From NCBI GenBank assembly GCA_020851855.1, contig JADZBY010000435.1:1095-65094 (forward strand): a stretch of 64,000 bases of DNA. Reading direction: 5' to 3'. The DNA is from Anaerolineae bacterium. Its GTDB lineage: Bacteria > Chloroflexota > Anaerolineae > Aggregatilineales > UBA2796. The notes under the pieces were generated by a model. That model saw only the letters and a program-made list of their open reading frames with translations, ran no database searches and was not told the origin of the DNA. Positions 1-63,785 of this stretch are shown here, one piece after another. The translations under genes were made by a program, and so were the position numbers. Position 1 is the stretch's first letter. Each line of letters opens with the position of its first letter.

Positions 1-1101
1 ATTATGTACTCGCTTTCGCGACTCTGGAAACAGGCCGGCCTTGTCTGCAAGTTCGCAGAACCAGAAAGGTGCTGTCAACTCCTGGGAGCTTTGGTAATTC
101 AGGGCCACGCAGAAACCAAAGCACGTGTCTCGCAACACACAATCTCCGCATACCCGGTTCAACCTTCGTGGCAAGTCCTCGCGTAGGCGCAGCAGGGTTG
201 GGTGGTGAACCCAGATTTCAGCAACGCTTTCATGCCCGATCTGCCCATACAGGAGTTCGGGCACCTGAACTCCTATACCACACATTGACACTTGACCGGT
301 ATGAAGGATTCCCAAGATGTTAAATATGCTACAGCTCGTGCACCCACTATTACTGGTTAGTTGCCCCAGGCGGTCGAATGCCGGCGGCCAGCTGTAGTAT
401 ATTGGGATGCTCACCTTGGGCTGCAATGCACCTGTTACCCAACGCCCAATCTCGATGAGCCGGGAGATGTCCGTTATTCGTGAGCCCATCTTGCTTCCGC
501 GCCCAGTAGTCTGGATGATATTCAGCTTCAGTGATGAGCAGCCCACCGAAGAAGCCCACTCAGCAAGTGATCTGATTTCGTCAAGGTTGCCTTCGTGGAT
601 GCTCATGATCACTTGTGGCGCGAAGCCTACATCTACGAGAAATTGTACTCCTCTTCTCGCTGATTCGAAGCTGCCTTGAACACCACGCATTGAATCATGT
701 GTCAAGCTCGTTGCCCCATCCAAGCTAACGGACAAGGCTCGCACGTTGGTTTCTTCGCGCATGAAGCGCGCGAACGAGGCTGTTATGAGTGTCCCATTGG
801 TTTCAATGGTAATGCCGAGTTCACGCTCAGTGACATATAAGAGCATCTTTTCCAAGTCTGGATGCACTAATGGCTCACCGCCGGTGAACTTTACGTGCGT
901 TAGTCCCAGTGGTTCGCCCTCGCGAATGGCCTGGACAAACAGGTCATATGGTAAAGAGCGTTCTCCAGAAGATCGCTTGGACTGGATGAATGCTGGAGTG
1001 ATCCAACAATGCCGACAGGCGAGATTGCATTCGCCCGTGACATACATGTAGTAGGTGCGTAAAGGGGGAACACCCTCAGGCAACCCTGACTCAGAAGGCA
1101 A
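1..1101 (-). CDS. radical SAM/SPASM-domain maturase-like protein, partial (C-terminus lies beyond window start)
   Basis: Absent from the ORF track because there is no stop inside the window. I reverse-translated the frame with codons at 1-3, 4-6 and so on, and it is open from the stop at 1117-1119 down to nt 1. It reads ...YYMYVTGECNLACRHCWITP (CxxxCxxC, nt 1006-1029), VKFTGGEPLVHP (nt 859-894), GCTSCSIF (nt 325-345) and CGDCVLRDTCFGFC (nt 109-150). Candidate start is TTG 1099-1101 after GGGGAGGA; the alternative is ATG 1045-1047. Confidence 0.8.
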   Translation of the reverse strand, partial: MPSESGLPEGVPPLRTYYMYVTGECNLACRHCWITPAFIQSKRSSGERSLPYDLFVQAIREGEPLGLTHVKFTGGEPLVHPDLEKMLLYVTERELGITIETNGTLITASFARFMREETNVRALSVSLDGATSLTHDSMRGVQGSFESARRGVQFLVDVGFAPQVIMSIHEGNLDEIRSLAEWASSVGCSSLKLNIIQTTGRGSKMGSRITDISRLIEIGRWVTGALQPKVSIPIYYSWPPAFDRLGQLTSNSGCTSCSIFNILGILHTGQVSMCGIGVQVPELLYGQIGHESVAEIWVHHPTLLRLREDLPRRLNRVCGDCVLRDTCFGFCVALNYQSSQELTAPFWFCELADKAGLFPESRKRVHN

Positions 1102-2197
1102 ATTCTGGATCCTCCCCTACGTAGGCACGGTAACAATCTCGCGGATTAGCGAGATTCACGTTTCCGGTTATGGCATAGGCAACACCAGGGCATCCCCCCG
1201 TGCAGTACGACTGGTACCGGCAGGCAACGCAGCGTGGGTCAGTATTTAGCGGGATAGTACGTCTTTTTCGCAACGCTACCAAATCTGGAGCTCCAAGCCA
1301 GACATCGCGGAATGGCCTTTGTCCGATTCGTCCAAGATGGAGGTGCGGCAGTTGGTGACACGGTACGTAGGTTCCATCGTGAAGCACGGCCAAACGCTGC
1401 CACATGATTCCGCAACCTGTCAGGCATCCATCTGCAGGGCCGTCCGTGTACTCGCCAGCAGCATGCGCGCTCTTAACGCGCTCAATCATCTCAGCTATGA
1501 TTAGCGGTCCTGACAGCGCGCCACGCGCAACGCCGGGATGATTCTTGTCAAACTCCTGCATGACTCGGAATGCCAGGCGGCGCTCCTCACGGGTCATCTC
1601 CAAGTTCACGTGATTGCAGTGGCCGGCACCCATCGGGTACGCTTCGTTAACACCGAATTGCACTAAACCGAGGTCACCATGGAGCAGGTTGAGTGTTGCC
1701 TCCAAGTCGTCCACGTTCAACTTGCTGACCGTCACACGTACTGTCCAAGGCAGCGATAGCTTCTTCAGGGCATCAATACCGCGCATCGTCCGCTCGAAAG
1801 CACCCTTGCCACGAAGCGCATCATGCGTCTCTGGCCGCGAACCGTCAACGGAGACCTGAATGCTATCCAGTCGTTTCCGGTATGTGGCCAATCTAGATGC
1901 CACATTTTCAGTGATCAAGGTAGCGTTGGTCAGAATCTGAAATCGCATCTTATTCGCGACAACGCCATCAAGAAGTGCCCAGATATCGCGGCGCGTGAAG
2001 ATCTCACCTCCCGTCAGAATGACGCGCATTATTCCCGCATCGCGCAATTCTTCGAAGAAACTGAGCCAGGCATCCGTGGGAAGATCTGCCCGTCCGGTCA
2101 TCTCATCTGCATAGTAGCAGTGCTGGCAACGGAGATTGCATTGTCCGGTGAGTGCAATATCCACAGATTCTGGCATGGGAAGGAGTGATCGTGACAT
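1091..2197 (-). CDS. radical SAM/SPASM-domain peptide-maturase-like protein
   Basis: ORF 1091..2263. Contains LTGQCNLRCQHCYY (CxxxCxxC), ILTGGEIF, and a C-terminal Cys cluster CVACRYQSYCTGGCPG typical of SPASM domains. The probable start is ATG 2197 (AGGAA about 10 nt upstream). The 3-prime end overlaps the start region of the next rSAM gene. Confidence 0.85.
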   Translation of the reverse strand: MSRSLLPMPESVDIALTGQCNLRCQHCYYADEMTGRADLPTDAWLSFFEELRDAGIMRVILTGGEIFTRRDIWALLDGVVANKMRFQILTNATLITENVASRLATYRKRLDSIQVSVDGSRPETHDALRGKGAFERTMRGIDALKKLSLPWTVRVTVSKLNVDDLEATLNLLHGDLGLVQFGVNEAYPMGAGHCNHVNLEMTREERRLAFRVMQEFDKNHPGVARGALSGPLIIAEMIERVKSAHAAGEYTDGPADGCLTGCGIMWQRLAVLHDGTYVPCHQLPHLHLGRIGQRPFRDVWLGAPDLVALRKRRTIPLNTDPRCVACRYQSYCTGGCPGVAYAITGNVNLANPRDCYRAYVGEDPEFAF

Positions 2198-4052: not shown

Positions 4053-4253
4053 ATGATTAAGCGTATTGAGTTCACCCTGAACCTGGCCGACCCACGCGAC
4101 GAGGCTATTTACCGCGCCCTCGTGCCGTCGCTGCGTTACCGTCGCGCCGGGGCGCTCATCCGGCAGGCGCTGGGCGTATTCCTCAGCAGCAACGCGCGGC
4201 CACCGGTCCAGCCGCATAGCCCGCAGGAGCGCAAGCTTCATGAGCAGTCCTAA
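4053..4253 (+). CDS. small ribbon-helix-helix-like DNA-binding protein
   Basis: 66 aa, with GGGAGG 5-6 nt before the ATG. It shows a beta-strand/helix pattern (IEFTLNL...DEAIYRAL...AGALIRQALGVFL) resembling the protein encoded after parM. It overlaps the parM start. Confidence 0.55.
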   Translation: MIKRIEFTLNLADPRDEAIYRALVPSLRYRRAGALIRQALGVFLSSNARPPVQPHSPQERKLHEQS

Positions 4254-5271
4254 GCGTAACGGCGCGCTGACCATCGGCCTGGACATCGGCTACGGCGTGG
4301 TCAAGGCCGTGACCTCGGACCAGGTCGTGATGTTCCCGTCTGTCATGGGCCACGCCCGCGAGGTGAAGTTCCAGCAAGAGGACATGTCACGGCGCTACCC
4401 CGGCGACCAGATCCGCGACGACGAGGGCGACTGGTTCGTGGGCGATCTGGCGCTGGCGCAACTGCCCACCGGCGAGCTGCTACGGCTGCGCGGACGCACC
4501 GCAAACGAGTCGACGATGGGCAATGCCTTCCGGCTGCGGTTGGCCAAAGTGGCTATCGGCAAGCTTCTGCAGGATGCGCACAACCGCGATCTAGCCCACA
4601 TCCGCATCGCCACCGGCTTGCCCGTCGATCATATGCGCGACGCCGATGAGCTGAAAGAGACCTTGTGCGGCCAGCACCTCATCCAGACCGACACTGCCGA
4701 GGTGGTCGCCAACGTGACGGACGTGATGGTCATGCCGCAGCCCTACGGCACCATCTTTTCCGCCACGCTGACCGAGTCGGGCGAGATCAACCGCAGGCAC
4801 AACTTCCGGCTCACCGGCGTGTGCGACGTCGGCACGTACACGGTTGATCTGGCGCTCGACGACGAGGGGCAGTTCCTGGACTCGGAGAGTGGCAGCGTCG
4901 AGAGTGGCGTGTACACGGCCCAGGAGCGCATCGCGTCGGCTCTGGAGCGCGATTACCGCGAGAAGATGCCTTTCCGCATCGTGGAAGAAGTACTACGTAC
5001 CGGGCTATTCCACGCCAACGGTCAGGCAGTAGATTACCGCGCCATCGTCGAGCAGGCCCTCGCGCCGCTGCGCAGCGCGACGCTCAACCTCATGTCTGAG
5101 AAGTGGCAGCGCGGCACGATCATCGAAGTGATCTACCTGTCCGGTGGCGGCGCTGACCTCGTGGCAGATGTGGTGTGTGAAGCGTATCCGCAGGCGCAGA
5201 TCATCCCCGAGGCGCAACTTGCCAATGCGCGCGGCTACCTGAACTATGCATACTTCATGGCGCGTCCGTGA
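4240..5271 (+). CDS. parM: ParM/StbA-type actin-like plasmid segregation ATPase
   Basis: Carries actin-fold signatures: LTIGLDIGYGVVKAV (phosphate 1), VCDVGTYTVDLA (phosphate 2) and IYLSGGGADL (adenosine). Confidence 0.85.
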   Translation: MSSPKRNGALTIGLDIGYGVVKAVTSDQVVMFPSVMGHAREVKFQQEDMSRRYPGDQIRDDEGDWFVGDLALAQLPTGELLRLRGRTANESTMGNAFRLRLAKVAIGKLLQDAHNRDLAHIRIATGLPVDHMRDADELKETLCGQHLIQTDTAEVVANVTDVMVMPQPYGTIFSATLTESGEINRRHNFRLTGVCDVGTYTVDLALDDEGQFLDSESGSVESGVYTAQERIASALERDYREKMPFRIVEEVLRTGLFHANGQAVDYRAIVEQALAPLRSATLNLMSEKWQRGTIIEVIYLSGGGADLVADVVCEAYPQAQIIPEAQLANARGYLNYAYFMARP

Positions 5272-11245: not shown

Positions 11246-12793
11246 ATGCCTTCTAGGTCGCGAACCTACAACTACGTTGCAGGCATTATCACTGGCTATG
11301 CTTCGTCAATAGCCACTATCGTAGTAGGTCTATGGCTCACTCCCTTTACGTTCCGTTATTTGGACCGTGAGGCCTACGGAATTGCCTCGCTCGGAAGTAG
11401 CGTGATTGTCTGGCTCAGTCTCTTCGATATAGGCATTACGGCTGGGTTGAACGTACACTTGGCGCAGAGCTCGTCGAACATGAATATGGATGAGATTAAC
11501 CGTCTCACGAGTTCCACTTTCTTTGCACAGCTTGTCATCGCACTTCTGGCGCTTATAGTTGGCATCGCGATTGCATTCGGTTTTCCAGCGTTCTTTGAAG
11601 TTAGTCCCAATTTGCAGCATGACTCTGTCGTGATGGTCTGTCTACTAGCCGTTGGGATGGCTATCAACCTCAGTACAAGGACATTCTCCGCACTGCTTGT
11701 TGCTATGCAGCAGATGCACGTTGACAACCTGTTGAGCCTAGCACTGATTTTCATCCGCACAATACTTACTGTAGCAATGCTAACCGCTGGATGGGGAATT
11801 CTGTCAATCACCCTCGCAAACCTCGTCGCCACAGTGATTACAAGTTCACTGGCGGTGCTTCGCGCGTTTCGCGCAGTACCTGGACTGAAGATTCTCGCGC
11901 GTCTTGTGTCCCTAGAAGACTTCAAGAAGGTAGCCCGGGTGGGAGTATGGTTCGCTCTAGGTGGGCTTGCTGGAATTGTGATCCTCAACGTAGATCAGAT
12001 TGTGATTGCCAAGATTGTTTCCTTAGAGGCCGTGACTACTTTCGCAATTACCGGTCGGTTGTACAACTTGTCCCAAGGGTTCCTCAATCGCATAACTGAG
12101 ACGGCGCGGCCTGCCTTGGGTCAGATGATGGGACAGGGTAACATGGACACGGCTGTTCGCACGTACCGGCAGCTGTTCGCGCTCTCAACGGGTCTTTCCG
12201 TTGCAGTTGCATTTGCGATATGGGCGGGCAACCGAGCCTTTGTTACAGCTTGGGTAGGCGAAGCCAACTACGGTGGAGGGACACTGGACCTAGCGTTTGC
12301 ACTGAATCTACTGGCAAACACGTGGATACTTCCCAATCGAGCGGCGCTGTCAGCAGGACTTGTTGTGCGTCAACAGACTTTGAGTCGTCTGCTGGAAGCA
12401 ACTATCAACTTAGGTCTCTCTATTCTCCTTACGATGAGATTCGGTATTGTTGGCGCAGCTATCTCCACAGCATTCGCTGCCTTTGTTACTTCGTTCTTCT
12501 ACCTTCCGCTTCTGACAGCGCGTATGTTTCAACGTTCCTTCAAGGAATTCCTACTTCGAGACTCTGTGCCTCCGTTGTTGGCAGCACTATGCATATTTCC
12601 CGTTGCCGCACTGGCTAGGATCGGCGCAACTGCCGTGGGGGGAGTTGTTGGCTCTGCAGCCGCAGCTTTATTGACGATTGTAGCTGGGATCGCAATCGTG
12701 TGGGGCTTGGTCCTTGGGAACGATCTCCGGAGACGGTTTCGTAGTGCTATTCTGCAGACAGTCAGATCCTCAAATGTCGGTCCTGGACGATGA
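11246..12793 (+). CDS. wzx: Wzx-type oligosaccharide flippase (MOP superfamily polysaccharide biosynthesis protein)
   Basis: A 515-aa polytopic membrane protein with the flippase-like N-terminus ...LWLTPFTFRYLDREAYGIASL. It is the first gene of the glycan cluster. Confidence 0.7.
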   Translation: MPSRSRTYNYVAGIITGYASSIATIVVGLWLTPFTFRYLDREAYGIASLGSSVIVWLSLFDIGITAGLNVHLAQSSSNMNMDEINRLTSSTFFAQLVIALLALIVGIAIAFGFPAFFEVSPNLQHDSVVMVCLLAVGMAINLSTRTFSALLVAMQQMHVDNLLSLALIFIRTILTVAMLTAGWGILSITLANLVATVITSSLAVLRAFRAVPGLKILARLVSLEDFKKVARVGVWFALGGLAGIVILNVDQIVIAKIVSLEAVTTFAITGRLYNLSQGFLNRITETARPALGQMMGQGNMDTAVRTYRQLFALSTGLSVAVAFAIWAGNRAFVTAWVGEANYGGGTLDLAFALNLLANTWILPNRAALSAGLVVRQQTLSRLLEATINLGLSILLTMRFGIVGAAISTAFAAFVTSFFYLPLLTARMFQRSFKEFLLRDSVPPLLAALCIFPVAALARIGATAVGGVVGSAAAALLTIVAGIAIVWGLVLGNDLRRRFRSAILQTVRSSNVGPGR

Positions 12794-31270: not shown

Positions 31271-33226
31271 ATGTCTGACTCCCGCTACCTCCACCTGATC
31301 CGGCAGGATTGTCAGCTCCCGCCTGGAACGCACGTCGTGGCGTACTGCCGGGACAGCGGCGGAGAGGAGCAGGAACGCTCCACCCTGCAGCAGGTCGACG
31401 TCATCCGCGAGTACTGCGCCCACCACAACCTCATCCTCGACCAGTTCTACGTCGACGACGCGAAAGAGGCGGGCAGTACCGAGCACCGCACCCAGCTCCA
31501 GCAGATGCTCACCACCCTGCGCACCCAGTTCCGCCAGATCAACGACCGCACCAAACGCCGCAAACACAGCCAGAACGCGCCCTTCGGCGTCATCTTCTGG
31601 AAATCGAACCGCCTGGGTCGCGACAGCATCGAAACGCGCTTCATCAAGGCCGACCTTCGCCTGCGCACCATCACGATCATCGATCTGAACCGGACCAGCA
31701 CCGGCGACACCGGGGCGGATGCGGTGCTGGAGGCTTTCCACGAGTGGCAGGACGAGACGTTCCTCGACGACGCCGGCGAGAATGCCAGTCGCGGCCTGGC
31801 ATCCATCGTCGGTATGCGCGATAACGATGCCGAGTTTCGCCGCCACAACCCGGAGTGGCCGACCAACGACGGGCGCTACCTGGGCATCCGGCCCGGAATA
31901 CCGCCAAAGGGCTTTCACGGCGAGAGCATCAAGATCGGGATACGCGAGCGCAAGCGGCGGCGCGGCGTCGAATCCGAGGCGCACATTGTCCAGCGCATCG
32001 TGCCGGACAAAGAGAGCGGCCTGTGGGCGCGCTGCCGGCTGGCCTGGGAAATGCGTCGCGAGGGCAAAGGCATCGCCGAAATCATGAAGGTGACCCGCCT
32101 CTACGGCACGGCAACCGCGTTCACGGCGTTCTTCGGCAACCGCATCTACACCGGCGATTTCGCCTATGGCGGCAAGGTGTACGAGAACTTCGTCGAGCCG
32201 CTCATCCCGCGCGAGTGGTGGGAAGACGAGCAGAAGAAGATGACCGCGCGCAGCGAAAAACAGAGGCAGCAGAGGTTAAACCCCAAGCTTGAGCCGCGCC
32301 GTATTGCCAGCCGCCATCTGCTGACCGGTCTCGTGTTCTGCAACCATGTCGATGGCGAAGAGCACCCAATGCTGGGCGACACCATCACTGAGAACGACGT
32401 GCGCAAGCGCTGGGACTTCTACATCTGCTCGGTCAAGAAGAACTCGCGCGGCAAAAAATGCGACTCCAAGCGCATCAGTACCCAGGCGCTCAACAAGGCG
32501 GTCGTGGACAAGCTGATGAGCGAGGTCCTGACCCACGCTAATCTGCGCCCGCTGGCGGATAATCTGGCGCAGGCGATGGTCGAGCGCAATCTGGATGCCG
32601 AGGCGCGCATCACCGCGGCCCGGAGTCGTCTGGACGAGGTGCGCGCGTCCATTGCCCGCCTGATGGACGCCATTGAGAAGTCGGGCCATTCATTCAGCAT
32701 CCAGCAGCGCCTGGAAACACGCGAAGCCGAGCAACGCGAACTTCTGGCAGAAATCACGCGCATGAACAAGCTCATCGTCAAGCCGAGCGACATCCCGAAG
32801 ATCAGCGACGAGCAGCTCACAGCCTTTATCGACAACATGCGGGAGACGCTGATGAGTGATGACGTGATGCTCGCGCGGGCAGCGATTGCCCGATTCGTGG
32901 CCAAAGTCGTGGTAAACGGCAAAACGGGAACGTTGTATTATACGTTCCCGTTTCATGATATTACTAGGAATGAGACTTTGCCCCTATGGGGCTTACGCCG
33001 TCACCGAGTATACAGCCTTGAAAAGTGCGCGAAGAAGGTCATTCGTTGGCTCAGTGACACGCTTCCTGCGGCAACAGCTGACTATTACGGGCCTCATCCG
33101 AAAGCGCAACGCAACGAGCTGATCCGCCAACGTTACGCAAACGGCGAGAATATCCCCAAGCTGGCAATTGCCTTTGACCTCTCGCGTGCGCGCATCCACC
33201 AGATTTTACACGGGCAACGAAAATGA
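31271..33226 (+). CDS. large serine recombinase (resolvase catalytic domain, recombinase domain, Zn-ribbon, coiled coil) with extra C-terminal sigma-70-region-4-like HTH
   Basis: Catalytic region VVAYCRDSGGEEQERSTLQQQ... and SNRLGRD. Zn-ribbon-like segment FCNHVDGEEHP...FYICSVKKNSRGKKC. Coiled coil ...RSRLDEVRASIARLMDAIEK.... The canonical end is ...VVVNGKTGTLYYTFPF, which is followed by about 91 further residues ending in NIPKLAIAFDLSRARIHQILHGQRK. Confidence 0.85.
   Translation: MSDSRYLHLIRQDCQLPPGTHVVAYCRDSGGEEQERSTLQQVDVIREYCAHHNLILDQFYVDDAKEAGSTEHRTQLQQMLTTLRTQFRQINDRTKRRKHSQNAPFGVIFWKSNRLGRDSIETRFIKADLRLRTITIIDLNRTSTGDTGADAVLEAFHEWQDETFLDDAGENASRGLASIVGMRDNDAEFRRHNPEWPTNDGRYLGIRPGIPPKGFHGESIKIGIRERKRRRGVESEAHIVQRIVPDKESGLWARCRLAWEMRREGKGIAEIMKVTRLYGTATAFTAFFGNRIYTGDFAYGGKVYENFVEPLIPREWWEDEQKKMTARSEKQRQQRLNPKLEPRRIASRHLLTGLVFCNHVDGEEHPMLGDTITENDVRKRWDFYICSVKKNSRGKKCDSKRISTQALNKAVVDKLMSEVLTHANLRPLADNLAQAMVERNLDAEARITAARSRLDEVRASIARLMDAIEKSGHSFSIQQRLETREAEQRELLAEITRMNKLIVKPSDIPKISDEQLTAFIDNMRETLMSDDVMLARAAIARFVAKVVVNGKTGTLYYTFPFHDITRNETLPLWGLRRHRVYSLEKCAKKVIRWLSDTLPAATADYYGPHPKAQRNELIRQRYANGENIPKLAIAFDLSRARIHQILHGQRK
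32922..32953. repeat. perfect 12-bp inverted repeat with 8-bp spacer inside the recombinase ORF
   Basis: AAACGGGAACGT (32922-32933), spacer tgtattat, ACGTTCCCGTTT (32942-32953). It lies exactly where canonical large serine recombinases end. Confidence 0.8.
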
Positions 33227-33265
33227 GCCAATAGCCGTCCGCTCGAACCCCACAGCATCGAGTAC

Positions 33266-33307
33266 ACGCGCCGCGCCACCGTTATGGTGACGTGGCGCGT
33301 TCGTTTT
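33266..33307 (+). terminator. rho-independent terminator after the recombinase gene
   Basis: An imperfect GC-rich stem, ACGCGCCGCGCCAC (33266-33279) pairing with GTGACGTGGCGCGT (33287-33300), is followed by TCGTTTT. Confidence 0.55.
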
Positions 33308-33551
33308 CAGTTGTATGGCGCGGAAATCACATCCATGGCGAGATGTAGCGCTGCATGCCCTTCCTGCTGAGAAGCGGGGTAGAATGATCGTGGTTTCCGT
33401 CTCGCTACCAGGGTTAGTATGTTCTACACATTCCTTCCCCCTTCTCGTTCTGCTCACGATCCGAAGTGATACTAGTGGAAATCGTCGTCTGTCAGATTGG
33501 GAGTCCGCTGCCTTGAGAGACACATGGTCCCCGAAGGGTGAAGGTGTCTGC

Positions 33552-34496
33552 TCAGGGGATATCCCATCGCGAGATGAGGAATCCGGGTGTTCCTACGCCG
33601 TAGCGACGCCGAAAATCATCCACAGTGGCAGCGTTCGTCAGAGGCTTGACCATCAGCGTACCCCCGCCGCGAGGCTCGGTCAAGAAGCCTGCACGAGCGA
33701 AGACGGCGACATCCGTGCGGTGGTCTACCCTGACCTGAACGTAAGGGGCGTCCACTTCATGGGCGATTGCAGCCACCGAGCCGACAGGGTCGACTCCATC
33801 CAGCAAGAGCAGATTCGTGATCTTCAGGAAGGTATCAGAGGCAGAAACGACCGCGTAACCAACCGCAGAATCTCCTCCGCTCAGCAGCCACACATCCGGC
33901 ACACTCTGGGCTCCACATTGTGCGAGGAATGGAAAGAATGGGGAGTGCCGCCGCGCGAATCCCAGGTGACCCTTGGCGATTCGCTCAAACACCTGATCGG
34001 CAAGCGCGAGGCGTTCACCGTCGGCACGCTCGGCTATCAGCGCGACCGGATGAGGCAGTGCATTCTTTGCAGTGAAAACGCTGGCGCTGGAGTGAACGTC
34101 TTCATAGCCGAGTCTCTTGTAGAGCGCGTGTGCCACACGATGCACATCGGCGCTCACAGTCGAATAACGAAGGCCCGCTGCGCGCAGTTGCGTGTGGGCT
34201 TCTGCGATCAGCCGTGATGCGACTCCCCGGCGGGCGAAGGCCGGGTGCGTACATATGGCCCACAAGCCCCCGACCTCTTCGGCACCCTGCGTTGAGACCA
34301 CCGGCAGCCTCAATACGCCCACCTGCCCGGCGATGGCCTCACCCTCTTGAGCGTACAGGGCGAGGAAAGGGAAAGGGCGCGGATCCTGCTGGCGGATCAG
34401 GGTTACCCGTTCGGGGGTGAGCGCGACGTCGAGGCACATCAGGTTCAGGTGCAATACGGCAAGCGGATCGACTGCATCGTACTCATGGATCTGCAT
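33552..34496 (-). CDS. GNAT-family N-acetyltransferase (Eis-like two-domain architecture possible)
   Basis: From ORF 33552..34589; the probable start is ATG 34496. It has the acetyl-CoA motif ICTHPAFARRGVASRLIAEA. Confidence 0.7.
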   Translation of the reverse strand: MQIHEYDAVDPLAVLHLNLMCLDVALTPERVTLIRQQDPRPFPFLALYAQEGEAIAGQVGVLRLPVVSTQGAEEVGGLWAICTHPAFARRGVASRLIAEAHTQLRAAGLRYSTVSADVHRVAHALYKRLGYEDVHSSASVFTAKNALPHPVALIAERADGERLALADQVFERIAKGHLGFARRHSPFFPFLAQCGAQSVPDVWLLSGGDSAVGYAVVSASDTFLKITNLLLLDGVDPVGSVAAIAHEVDAPYVQVRVDHRTDVAVFARAGFLTEPRGGGTLMVKPLTNAATVDDFRRRYGVGTPGFLISRWDIP

Positions 34497-34613
34497 TTCG
34501 AGTAGTCCTGTTGGTGCAGCTAGAATCCGCGAGAACGTGTGATTCACTGCGAGGCGTTTTCCCCGCACCACTTCTTTTTCGGCCTTCACATCCTCGTCAG
34601 CTCCGCTGCCCGA

Positions 34614-35147
34614 TCAGGGCGGCCCGCTGGACACGAGCGGCGTGACGACTATTCTGCCTTCCATGCCTGCCTGGCGGTGACCGGCGACGGTGCAGAAGTA
34701 GCTGTGAGTCCCGACGTGGGCCACCTCGACGAGAAACCTCGCCTCAGACGTCGCGCCCGCGCCGCTGATCATCGGAAGCTGCACGCCCAGGTCAGGAACA
34801 GCCAGATCGTGAGGCATGCCATCCCCATTGATGACTGTCAGGTGCACGACACTGCCCGGCGGTACAACGAGATCGGGATTGACCACACCATCGATGGCTC
34901 CGCCAACACCCACAAAGGCCATGCGCCCGTCGACAATGCCGGTCTCAAGGCTGAACTCGACCAGGGTCACAGCGCGCGTGGTTACCGGCCCGGGCATGGG
35001 CGATACTGCCGCCAGCGATCTGCCTGTAGACATCGTGGACCCGTCCGTGGGCGTCGCCACAACATGGTTATCGTGGGGCGAGCCGCAGGCCGTCAATCCG
35101 AGGGTTAGCCCGATCAGAAGGACGAAGAAAGCTGTACCTTGTCTCAT
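34614..35147 (-). CDS. cupredoxin (blue copper) lipoprotein
   Basis: From ORF 34614..35246. The start at ATG 35147 follows GGGAGA. It has a lipobox (LGLTACGS). The type-1 Cu ligands are present: GMPHDLAV ... YFCTVAGHRQAGMEG (Cys, His, Met). Confidence 0.8.
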   Translation of the reverse strand: MRQGTAFFVLLIGLTLGLTACGSPHDNHVVATPTDGSTMSTGRSLAAVSPMPGPVTTRAVTLVEFSLETGIVDGRMAFVGVGGAIDGVVNPDLVVPPGSVVHLTVINGDGMPHDLAVPDLGVQLPMISGAGATSEARFLVEVAHVGTHSYFCTVAGHRQAGMEGRIVVTPLVSSGPP

Positions 35148-35242
35148 CACATGGTCTCCCTGGCCGGGGCCGGGAAAAAGGGCTTGCGCCCCCTTTCCGC
35201 CCCTTGTGTACACGACACGAAACCCGATTCGGACCTCTACGT

Positions 35243-35764
35243 TCACATACCCCAGTACCGTGCTGTGGCCATCGTCAGCAGCGAGACAATCATCAGGACC
35301 AGTTCCACACGTTCCAGAGCCATGATCTCATCGTCCAACACGTGCATTTCGGCTGCCAGCGTCGCAGGCGGAGGCCCACCCGCCATGGCGATCTCCTTGC
35401 CCAACTGACCCAATCGTTGGCCACGGGGTCGGATCAGGATGAAACCGAGCAGGTAGGCCAGGATGGCGGCCACCGAGCCGATGGTGAATCCAATGCCCGT
35501 CGGCGTCTGAATCCAGGCGGTTTGCAGCCCACCAGAGCTGTTCCAGTAGAGCAGAGCGCCGGCAAGGATGGTCACGGCGCTCGAGATGTTCATGAACATC
35601 GGATAACGCCGCCGCTCGATGAACCCCTGCAGGAACTGCGGCCTGGCGGGACCCAGGCCCTTCACGGAAGGGGCAACAAAGTAGAAGTACAGGATGGCGC
35701 TGCCCACCCAGAACACACCGCCGACGACATGCAGGATACGCAGAAGGAGAATGACCGTGTTCAC
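35243..35764 (-). CDS. integral membrane protein (four predicted TM helices), function unknown
   Basis: 173 aa and hydrophobic. Its stop region overlaps the maximal ORF of the cupredoxin gene. Confidence 0.65.
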   Translation of the reverse strand: MNTVILLLRILHVVGGVFWVGSAILYFYFVAPSVKGLGPARPQFLQGFIERRRYPMFMNISSAVTILAGALLYWNSSGGLQTAWIQTPTGIGFTIGSVAAILAYLLGFILIRPRGQRLGQLGKEIAMAGGPPPATLAAEMHVLDDEIMALERVELVLMIVSLLTMATARYWGM

Positions 35765-38825: not shown

Positions 38826-39560
38826 TCTCTTTGCCCTTGCGCGCTGCCGGTTCTCCCGGTCTCAAACGGCTGGTCTGATCCTTACCCAGATGAAGCGCTA
38901 CGGTTTCAGTCAGGAGGGAACAGTGCAGCTTCTGAACAAGCTTAGTGGGGGACTGCCTGCCCAGGCATTCGCCGCGGGCACCGAGCACGGCTAGGCGCTG
39001 GAAACGATGGAGTGGCTAGAGCCAGCGATGGAATAGTGCTACGTTTCAATGCTGACGGCGTTGTGCTGGTTACTCACATCGTCCCCGATAAGTGCCGTTC
39101 TCATCGTGCCGGTTTGACGGCACTCGCAACGTCATAGAGGTGCTCATATAGGGACCTCTTCTGGACAGAACTCGGCACGATGTCAATGTTGGTTTCCATG
39201 ACCAATCATAGTAAACAGCACAATACAGCCGTGGTCAGGACCTCAGAATCTTGGGGGCATGGGTTCACACGTCCGCTCAGCCCGAGTGAGAAACCGGTCT
39301 GCTGGACAAGGGAGAGAGAATCCGCACGGACAGGGTCAATGAGAGGTACAATGGAATCAGCGATGCGGACGATGGCAGACATCGCCGTCTGCCAGGTTAG
39401 GCGTCGGTCGCCACAAGTGGTATATGGTACCAGAGGCGGCGAAGGCGAGCTGTCTTCGAGGGAATGTACGCACCCAGTCGGCTATGTAAGAGTATGCATG
39501 ACCACAGAGGTAGCTTGCGTTATGCACCCAATTAAGTATACTGTTTTGCCTCTATGGGGT

Positions 39561-42198: not shown

Positions 42199-42432
42199 CG
42201 GGGGCGTGAAACGGTGCAAACGCTACCCAGCGTGGAAGACACTGTTCGCGGCCTCGTCCAGCGGCTCCACAGCACCTTCCTCAGTTCTCCCCCGTGCAGA
42301 CGTTCAACCGCCGAACGCGATGATGTCATCCGAGACAAGTACACTGGCGGCCTGAGCATCCCCAAGCTAGCGAGAGAGTATCGCCTCTCGCGGGCGCGTA
42401 TTCACCAGATTCTGCACCGACGACATCGATAG
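42199..42432 (+). pseudogene. 3-prime part of a small sigma-70-region-4-like HTH gene split by the IS701/IS630 pair (5-prime part at 39522-39560)
   Basis: Deleting 39561-42198 joins ATG 39522 ...MHPIKYTVLPLWG in frame to RGRETVQTLPSVEDTV...GGLSIPKLAREYRLSRARIHQILHRRHR. The restored ORF is 91 aa and aligns without gaps to residues HDITRNETLPLWGLRRHRV...IPKLAIAFDLSRARIHQILHGQRK of the recombinase. Confidence 0.6.
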
Positions 42433-62960: not shown

Positions 62961-63785
62961 ATGGACGCCTATGGCCTTCTAGCTTTTGCCACGCCGTTTA
63001 TCGGCAGAACGGAGGAGTTGCGTCAGATTGAGGCGCTGCTCAGCGACCCATTGTGCCGCCTTCTCACATTGGTCGGCCCAGGCGGGATCGGGAAAACCCG
63101 CCTGGACGTCGAGGTGGCACGTCGCAAGTGGATGACGCCTAGTTGGGGATGCCTGGCGGTGCATCCGGGCAACCGCCAGTGTTTCCGACGGCGTCTGCTT
63201 CGTTCCTCTGCAACCGCTGACCGCACCCGATGTTGTCACCCCTGCCATCGCCGACGCGCTCCACCTCACGTTCTATGGCGAACAAGACCGCATACAGTAG
63301 CTTCTGGGTTACTTGCAGGGCAAACACCTGCTGCTCGTTTTGGACAATTTCGAGCACCTGACGGAGGGCGCAGATCTGCTGCCCGAGATGCTGCAAATCG
63401 CGCCCGATCCCAACTGGTAGTCACGTCGCGGGAGCGGCTGCATGAAGAATGCTTGATCGACGTAGGCGGGCTTACCTTCCCTGTGAGTCCCCACAAGTCG
63501 GGACAGGAAGACTTGGGCGCCGTGCAGCTTATCGTGCACAGCGCCCGCCGGGTCGGATATACACCCTTGGACGTCGACATCGTGGCAATTGTATATCAGC
63601 GATTCTCGATCGGGATGATCCCATAACGGGAACGTTACCGTCTTTGTCCCTCTCGTAATGCGGCGAAATCACGTTCGTAGCCGCAATAGTAGATCAACCA
63701 TCCTGTCAACCGCTGTATCTGTCAGGTCGTTGAAGGGATTCCGCTGGCGGTCGAACTCGCCTCCGCCTGGGTGCGGGTCATGCCC
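62961..63785 (+). pseudogene. decayed NB-ARC/TPR regulator paralog (frameshifts, in-frame TAG, about 114-bp insertion, truncated)
   Basis: It starts normally (FIGRTEELRQIEALLSDPLCRLLTLVGPGGIGKTRL). Homology then hops frames: FSDGVCFVPL...GEQDRIQ*LLGYLQGKHLLLVLDNFEHL with TAG at 63298-63300, then ...LVVTSRERL..., then CQVVEGIPLAVELASAWVRV at about 63721-63780. Confidence 0.7.

Follow-up and report, generated by a model that had tools for sequence, protein, structure and literature searches.

The window analysed here is a 64,000-nucleotide stretch of DNA from an Anaerolineae bacterium (GenBank assembly GCA_020851855.1, contig JADZBY010000435.1, positions 1,095 to 65,094 of the forward strand). 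It carries an open reading frame (ORF) of 651 amino acids for a large serine recombinase on the plus strand (31271..33226), and inside this ORF lies a perfect 12/8/12 inverted repeat, with arms AAACGGGAACGT (32922-32933) and ACGTTCCCGTTT (32942-32953) around the loop tgtattat (32934-32941). The repeat codes for K-T-G-T-L-Y-Y-T-F-P-F. A sequence-only reading of the window had drawn attention to this palindrome, and the window sequence confirms both its perfection and its position. It is the sole perfect hairpin in the window with 12-nt arms and a loop of 3-10 nt, a class that was absent from all thirty block shuffles; perfect hairpins with 10-nt arms number five, compared to a shuffled mean of 0.5. 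Below we present evidence that the palindrome is probably an intrinsic terminator acting on the strand opposite the recombinase, where relatives of this recombinase carry a tRNA gene.

The catalytic Resolvase domain (PF00239) of the recombinase spans residues 22-177 and scores 38.1 bits against a cut-off of 23.3, and the ORF also matches the PHROG ‘integrase’ family phrog_95 (5.9e-34). Two other domains fall below their cut-offs: Zn_ribbon_recom (PF13408) at 23.8 bits, with a cut-off of 25.3, and Recombinase (PF07508) at 16.3 bits, with a cut-off of 21.1. Precomputed PF13408 matches are present in homologs. The homolog set consists of 126 database matches with 45-58 per cent protein identity, and a profile scan gave eighty genomic loci, all of them in metagenome-assembled genomes of Anaerolineae or Aggregatilineales. 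Most homologs are about 585 aa long and end in ...RGFEPLTSTVRL or ...TGLEPVSSP, peptides that correspond to tRNA genes translated antisense. Upstream of the homologous recombinases are plasmid-like genes (e.g. AAA_25 or DnaB-like helicases, and actin-like ALP_N); in the window itself, an ALP_N gene occupies 4240-5271 and the cargo at 11-31 kb is a glycan cluster. Because of the antisense tRNA overlap and these plasmid-like upstream genes, we conclude that this family provides the integrase at the end of integrative, plasmid-like elements, whose target is the 3′ part of tRNA genes. A literature search returned no description of this recombinase family, or of a terminator embedded in an integrase ORF, which is not proof of absence.

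The conserved body of the protein extends to about residue 561 and is followed by a junction-dependent tail (residues 562-651). Among forty homologs the last near-invariant residues are Y557, F559, and P560, after which the tails diverge. The earlier suggestions that the canonical recombinase ends at the palindrome, and that the sequence past it is an add-on, therefore both hold: everything after the palindrome depends on the junction partner. In the window this partner encodes a helix-turn-helix (HTH) domain. Tail residues 610-648 match HTH_7 (PF02796) weakly, at 21.3 bits under a cut-off of 23.8, and a stand-alone HTH copy on contig C362 of the same genome exceeds that cut-off with 24.8 bits.

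The same dyad is found at the same codons in most homologs. It is kept in 47-52 distinct homolog sequences. Relative to the reading frame the two arms are shifted by one base, such that a third codon position pairs with a second position of the opposite arm, and peptide conservation alone therefore cannot yield the dyad. Among forty-seven distinct sequences, 80.7 per cent of cells pair on the plus strand (75.7 +/- 0.6 in shuffles), and sliding the pairing partners as a control lowers pairing to 26-47 per cent. Six dyad pairs vary on both sides, and the covariation score (0.178 vs 0.099) was matched by none of 500 shuffles. For several amino-acid changes in the left arm, the right arm shows a matching synonymous change (T>S, AGT/ACC; T>M, ATG/ACA; T>R, AGG/CCC), and a K/G change is likewise compensated (AAA..TTT vs GGA..TTC). 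Codon choice within the arms is strongly skewed relative to the background of the same genes, with GGA in 43/49 cases (background 0.14), ACG in 33/35 (0.32), CCG in 44/49 (0.47), and TTC in 49/49 (0.67). Just upstream of the dyad, the codons AAA (28/30, background 0.42) and ATA (13/26, background 0.08) build a T-tract on the minus strand. Because of these compensatory changes and skewed synonymous codons, we conclude that the palindrome is under selection as nucleic acid.

Using ARAGORN, we found a tRNA gene antisense to the recombinase and overlapping the end of its ORF in forty-one of fifty-six loci: thirty-four Ala(cgc), six Glu(ttc), and one Arg(tcg). The dyad lies 24-47 nt from the 3′ end of the tRNA, downstream on the tRNA strand. 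When the dyad is read on this minus strand, 89.1 per cent of cells pair, as the commonest plus-strand A.C mismatches turn into G.U; the innermost pair is U.G in thirty-one sequences. Hairpin energy averages -16.8 kcal/mol on the minus strand and -14.0 kcal/mol on the plus strand. The tails differ more sharply, with at least five T within 8 nt at 36/52 loci on the minus strand and at 0/52 on the plus strand. When T is counted past the final G-C pair, the minus tail averages 6.1 per 10 nt in each subclade; the plus tail has 5.25 in the Glu/long subclade to which the window belongs (n = 12) and 2.35 in the forty Ala/other sequences. One relative (locus L050) shows, in order along the minus strand, a promoter-like site (TTGACA-18-TACAAT, 11/12 matches), a tRNA-Ala, and a flagged 14-pair terminator. 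Another (L046) lacks the canonical dyad and carries in its position a different hairpin of 11-12 bp with UUUU after it.

Two further recombinase lineages sit beside tRNA-Glu genes and have unrelated C-terminal peptides. Type B, in genome G006, ends in ...AENKNAPHRKGMEQA; type C, on contig C746 of the window’s own genome (ORF 49..1875), ends in ...NRQQNASAENDAGSSEEYTP. Both have a textbook hairpin and U-tract on the tRNA strand within their last codons; the hairpin-in-recombinase arrangement has arisen more than once. On C746 (locus L122), the tRNA-Glu(ttc) at 14-86 is overlapped antisense by this distinct large serine recombinase of 608 aa, ending in ...EEYTPLPLWGFEPQFQP, and the putative tRNA-strand terminator, of textbook form, is at 108-133, inside the last codons of the recombinase (49-1875). 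Because of this position inside another recombinase ORF, we reject the 108-133 hairpin as a native host terminator. A hairpin at G006 C12:1408358 was left uncounted because its location inside an ORF could not be shown.

Comparison of junctions locates the attachment (att) site. Loci with non-tRNA tails and loci joined to a tRNA part at a sharp point, which is ...TGGACCTGA(GG)| for the Ala clade and ...CCCAACGGGACT| for the Glu clade, or 8-16 nt into the tRNA counted from its 3′ end. In the window, homology to other copies of the HTH module starts at 32979, 26 bp past the dyad, with a 13-nt antisense copy of the 3′ end of the genome’s own tRNA-Glu, and the three module copies do not differ over the initial 44 bp. 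Beyond TGCCCCTATGGGG the tRNA continues ATTCGAACCCC and the module continues CTTACGCC. Because the two sequences part after this 13-nt core, we place the crossover at about 32991-32994, where the TT at 32993-32994, common to tRNA and module, is the likely dinucleotide. Relatives have a conserved ..TCTAGG.. / ..CCTAGT.. at 21-27 nt before their break-points. The corresponding ACTAGG in the window (32963-68) mirrors CCTTGA (33016-21) about position ~32992, so that, as read from the sequence, the two motifs bound an attP-like site some 59 bp long (32963-33021). The 44-bp block at 32979-33022 combines the core derived from the tRNA with 31 bp of P′ arm; it is 100 per cent identical among modules that are otherwise 82-84 per cent identical, which fits either a strongly constrained recombinase half-site or gene conversion. 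The centre of the palindrome is 55 bp to the left of the att centre, outside the attP-like site, and every type of junction breaks 40-60 bp downstream of the palindrome, at the tRNA-derived core. The features of the locus are listed in Table 1.

Table 1. Features of the recombinase locus and related sites, in window coordinates.
Feature	Position	Strand	Remarks
Large serine recombinase ORF, ‘long form’, 651 aa	31271..33226	+	Resolvase 38.1 bits; phrog_95 integrase 5.9e-34
T-rich tail of the hairpin, UUUUGCCGUUUACC	32910..32924	-	First three U pair with the A-tract; 6 T per 10 nt past the last G-C pair (family mean 6.1)
12/8/12 palindrome, stem-loop of a putative intrinsic-terminator-like signal	32922..32953	-	RNA hairpin of about -17.6 kcal/mol, 12 pairs
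Putative P-arm half of att site, distal motif ACTAGG (32963-32968)	32954..32991	+	CTAG conserved in relatives
13-nt copy of own tRNA-Glu(ttc) 3′ end, antisense, TGCCCCTATGGGG	32979..32991	-	tRNA-Glu on C746 ends ...CCCCATAGGGGCA
Core-plus-HTH module, ~330 bp	32979..33308	+	Small resolvase-type HTH protein fused in frame to the recombinase
Putative P′-arm half-site, ends CCTTGA (33016-33021)	32992..33022	+	Part of the 44-bp block 32979-33022
Second tRNA-Glu-3′-end core, one mismatch, after ‘U’ repeat	39547..39559	+	
Second copy of the 12-mer AACGGGAACGTT, apparent chance match outside the system	63625..63636	+	Genome counts, flanks, no recombinase homology

Window residues 562-651 belong to a module of about 330 bp that recurs at C438:65741, just past the end of the window (84 per cent identity), and at C362:9575 (82 per cent). 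Other genomes show how such modules come to lie beside a recombinase. G002 (the genome of locus L063, labelled Candidatus Flexifilum breve) has a recombinase-tRNA-Glu junction at C1:880677; upstream on that strand, at a distance of 65 kb, a second copy of the tRNA 3′ end precedes a homologous HTH ORF. The two sites mark the ends of a single inserted stretch. The closest long-form homolog (P0002, 651 aa) comes from G006, whose contig C4 has four cores within 73 kb (211935, 231526, 265149, and 285235). The last of these joins tRNA-Glu and the three inner cores join HTH-type arms, which yields a decayed copy and, as in-frame recombinase-HTH fusions, ‘long’ recombinases whose open frames span 671 and 677 aa. 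This contig is a tandem array, with the long forms as its internal joints. The same region (loci L112-L115, 211935-285247) holds at least three or four elements at one tRNA-Glu, with two recombinase lineages alternating. At still other loci a ParA gene comes after the joint, as expected for the attP of a plasmid-like circle. In two cases (L026, ~2170-2260; L058, ~12010-12100) a ParA-type ATPase gene with the motif MTRVFVFTNHKGGV(G/A)KST... begins within ~330 nt of the recombinase joint, which suggests the attP of a plasmid-like circular form.

Because of the G002 ends, the G006 array joints, and the ParA joints, we conclude that the recombinase-core-HTH joint in the window is a P-P′ joint. The HTH tail is the other arm (P′) of the att region, fused in frame when the partner is not a tRNA. 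Short forms end in tRNA-antisense codons and long forms in an HTH at P-P′ joints, so the ORF spans the att site, and the conserved body to about residue 561 is intact in both the integrated and the joined states. We also considered a split gene, with the HTH part within 10 kb upstream of short-form recombinases, and rejected it. A search for the HTH in that interval gave no matches; the far end, located by a whole-genome pattern search, is 65 kb away in G002, and its HTH frame differs from that of the recombinase. At the far-end junctions L104 (G002 C1:815804) and L106 (G004 C77:16960), an ATG just before the tRNA remnant is in the recombinase frame and the HTH is in another. Decay, assembly indels, or a separate start could account for this mismatch.

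Further possible traces of such an array are present in the window’s own genome. The HTH gene of the core at 39547 is split by nested insertion sequence (IS) elements and resumes at ~42199-42432. This copy and the one at the contig end suggest an array whose tRNA end may be C746, an arrangement that rests on a fragmented assembly. Contig C438 as a closed circle was rejected, as its ends are without overlap. Besides C746, contig C133 (2900-3300) carries a near-identical P arm that is joined to a decayed HTH arm. Directly upstream of the tRNA-Glu core in four core-plus-HTH junctions is a genome-specific ‘U’ repeat of 110-300 bp (GTCGGYTATGTAA...TTAAGTATACCGTTA), with sites at 39240-39546 in the window, C438:65420-65740, C362:9450-9574, C498:572-680(-), C423:5600-5830(-), and C595:4515-5019. 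The repeat gives the small HTH ORF its ATG and occupies the place expected for the recombinase 3′ end in a tandem array; comparison found no similarity to recombinases and no match in forty relatives. Two other sites lie downstream of the recombinase in the window. At 33280-33297 (+), ~55 nt past the recombinase-HTH stop, is a terminator-like hairpin with the tail CGTTCGTTTT that is conserved in the other two module copies. The segment at 33478-33531, a 54-bp stretch downstream of the HTH module, is 80 per cent identical to L003 2355-2408, just upstream of the contig-end ‘U’ repeat. This 54-bp match hints at an older tandem or cyclic arrangement of modules.

Because of the minus-strand pairing, the one-sided T-tract, the position after the tRNA, and the repeated origin, our preferred reading is that the palindrome is probably the DNA image of an RNA hairpin, a minus-strand Rho-independent terminator that a serine-recombinase element targeting tRNA genes carries in the P arm of its attachment region. 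Such elements form an integrative, plasmid-like family of Anaerolineae/Aggregatilineales, with the large serine recombinase gene at the very end of the element, reading outward across the att site. An element inserts into the 3′ part of a Glu, Ala, or Arg tRNA gene antisense to the recombinase. The tRNA is rebuilt from the element’s own copy of its last 8-16 nt but severed from its former downstream sequence. The hairpin and T-tract, 24-47 nt beyond the rebuilt tRNA and within the last conserved codons of the recombinase, would then end transcription of the tRNA and spare the recombinase gene antisense read-through. In the window, the P arm has as its partner a P′ arm coding for a resolvase-type HTH, with the recombinase ORF running on in frame as the ‘long form’. 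This is the joint expected within a tandem array or in an excised circle, and the terminator would simply be carried along. Conservation, covariation, codon skew, strand asymmetry, tRNA adjacency, break-points, and arrays are all read directly from the genomes; termination at the hairpin and the exact crossover dinucleotide are inferences from them.

With respect to the usual features of a terminator, the hairpin is a stable, G+C-containing stem-loop with a U-tract 3′ of the stem, and a tRNA lies upstream on the hairpin strand in 41/56 relatives, but not in the window. Several observations weigh against a tRNA-strand terminator. No tRNA adjoins the palindrome in the window, its partner being the HTH gene; searches of the window for tRNA and Rfam matches found none, and on the minus strand the only genes upstream of the hairpin are those at 33552-35764. 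The minus tail of the window (UUUUGCCGUUU) is interrupted, with 6 T in 10 nt, and is weaker than the family norm, and a simple terminator scan of the window left the palindrome unflagged. In the Glu/long subclade the plus tail is also T-rich (5.25 T per 10 nt), so that polarity is ambiguous in this group. A search for a truly empty tRNA site with a native terminator found none. Since the homologs share ancestry, the shuffle counts and codon p-values exaggerate their independence, though the codon effect sizes are large. Lastly, a symmetric protein-binding site would likewise give compensatory changes in both arms.

This last point bears on a rival explanation, a form of the recombinase-binding idea of the sequence-only reading, in which the palindrome is an accessory protein-binding site beside attP, comparable to resolvase res sites II and III, that helps to set directionality and is bound by the recombinase, its resolvase-type HTH tail, or a free HTH protein. 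The perfect dyad with its 12-bp arms lies 8-10 bp from the ACTAGG motif of the putative attP, matches to HTH_7, the domain with which resolvases bind DNA, occur in the tail and its stand-alone copies, and two-arm changes are what a symmetric site would show. We nonetheless consider it improbable, as most family members (short forms and ParA-type joints) keep the dyad with no HTH partner nearby, unrelated recombinase lineages carry unrelated hairpins at the same place, and neither the one-sided T-tract nor the G.U tolerance of a single strand is explained. The sequence-only reading had also proposed an attenuator. In this explanation, the hairpin acts on the plus strand or on both, pausing or stopping transcription or translation of the recombinase just before the junction-dependent tail, thereby either restricting read-through into the antisense tRNA or adjusting how much short versus HTH-extended protein is made. 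In its favour, the plus tail of the window’s subclade, TTTCATGATA, is T-rich (mean 5.25 T per 10 nt, n = 12) and the plus-strand fold of the window palindrome is stable (z = -2.9); in addition, recombinase and tRNA converge, as do the genes that bidirectional terminators usually separate. Yet the hairpin is kept in the forty Ala/other sequences, whose plus tail has only 2.35 T per 10 nt, and 0/52 loci have at least five T in 8 nt on that strand. Plus-strand pairing is also the poorer of the two (80.7 vs 89.1 per cent), and terminating within the ORF would leave an mRNA with no stop codon. An attenuator thus seems unlikely to us. The proposal of a transcription attenuator came close to the mark, but the family-wide T-tract and G.U tolerance are on the opposite (tRNA) strand, and the plus tail is T-rich only in the window’s subclade, where the hairpin may work in both directions.

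The remaining rivals have far less in their favour. That the palindrome is a by-product of the conserved peptide KTGT...TFPF, with no role as nucleic acid, is favoured by the high conservation of the motif; this is very improbable, given that the dyad rests on third codon positions far from background (GGA, 43/49 vs 0.14) and that amino-acid changes are offset by synonymous changes in the opposite arm. Less credible still is the palindrome as the crossover itself, a pair of inverted att half-sites around a central dinucleotide, as the sequence-only reading had suggested. Its shape alone, symmetric with an AT-rich centre, speaks for this. Break-points in the window’s own genome and in relatives instead fall ~55 bp downstream, at the copy of the tRNA-Glu 3′ end, and partner homology starts 26 bp past the dyad. 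Both arms remain with the recombinase in tRNA, HTH, ParA-type, and other junctions and are never exchanged. Moreover, the repeat in the G006 arrays and the 65-kb G002 element is the tRNA-derived core, not the dyad. We regard this idea as in effect refuted already. A more speculative extension, which we hold to be doubtful, is that the tail swap exists by design: the excised or joined element would make a recombinase with an in-frame HTH, the tRNA-integrated element would lose it, and this would set directionality, with the dyad serving as both terminator and HTH dock. In the integrated state the HTH, if made, would be a separate small protein started from the (A/T)TG beside the tRNA remnant.

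The sequence-only reading had further noted that the 12-mer AACGGGAACGTT recurs in the window, and a second copy does exist at 63625-63636. As a second site it does not stand. The 11-mer AACGGGAACGT occurs five times in the 5.1-Mb genome compared to four for the reversed control, the flanks of the five copies have nothing in common beyond the word, and no recombinase homology was found near 63625. This recurrence looks like chance.

Intrinsic terminators have the same form as the predicted signal, a G+C-containing stem-loop followed by a U-tract a few tens of nucleotides past a short RNA gene on the same strand, and the 5′ A-tract gives the window’s subclade the two-way appearance of bidirectional terminators. 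The predicted terminator differs in lying antisense within the last conserved codons of a protein gene, where two constraints would act at once, and in being carried by a mobile element while serving a host tRNA. Targeting of tRNA genes is classically a trait of tyrosine integrases (e.g. P4, L5, and pSAM2), with the tRNA 3′ end restored from attP. The elements described here share with these the tRNA 3′ target, the carried copy of the tRNA 3′ end, an integrase gene beside attP, and tandem accretion. In contrast, the enzyme is one of the large serine recombinases, which do not require long identity; its ORF crosses the att site, and the putative replacement terminator is within that ORF. Relative to the att sites of phiC31, Bxb1, and A118, the putative attP (~59 bp, 32963-33021) has inverted distal motifs (ACTAGG/CCTTGA) about a centre at ~32992 and a conserved P′ part of ~31 bp, and the palindrome is outside the site, 55 bp from its centre. 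Similarities to the accessory sites of Tn3 and gamma-delta res include inverted 12-bp arms, a short spacer, a position adjoining the crossover, and an HTH_7-type domain in the system; here, however, the one-sided T-tract and G.U tolerance point to RNA, and the dyad is kept without an HTH partner.

The closest parallel for an att site within a recombinase gene comes from the SSV-type ‘suicidal’ integrases, in which recombination splits a tyrosine recombinase gene into two inactive parts, an arrangement that a review called exclusive to archaea (PMC8371274). Both systems place the att site within the recombinase ORF, such that recombination alters the gene product. The bacterial serine recombinase differs in that its body stays whole and only its tail is swapped, becoming either an HTH domain or a peptide antisense to the tRNA. 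Intrinsic terminators are well known, as are integrative elements that target tRNA genes; what appears to be new is a putative tRNA terminator placed antisense inside a serine recombinase ORF with a swappable tail.

These results describe a mobile element that is tightly fitted to its target, rebuilding the 3′ end of the tRNA and apparently supplying its terminator as well. They also provide a natural case of one stretch of DNA that seems to be under protein and RNA-structure selection together. The att site of these elements is unusually readable from sequence, an advantage in the search for new site-specific integrases. For annotation, the HTH-tailed ‘long’ recombinases in these genomes are likely junction products and not a separate architecture. 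The change of C-terminus on recombination is a possible new mode of directionality control, and a tail swap by design, if true, would give bacteria a serine-recombinase analogue of the ‘suicidal’ integrases of archaea. In Chloroflexota, this family constitutes a large, undescribed group of tRNA-targeting large serine recombinases.

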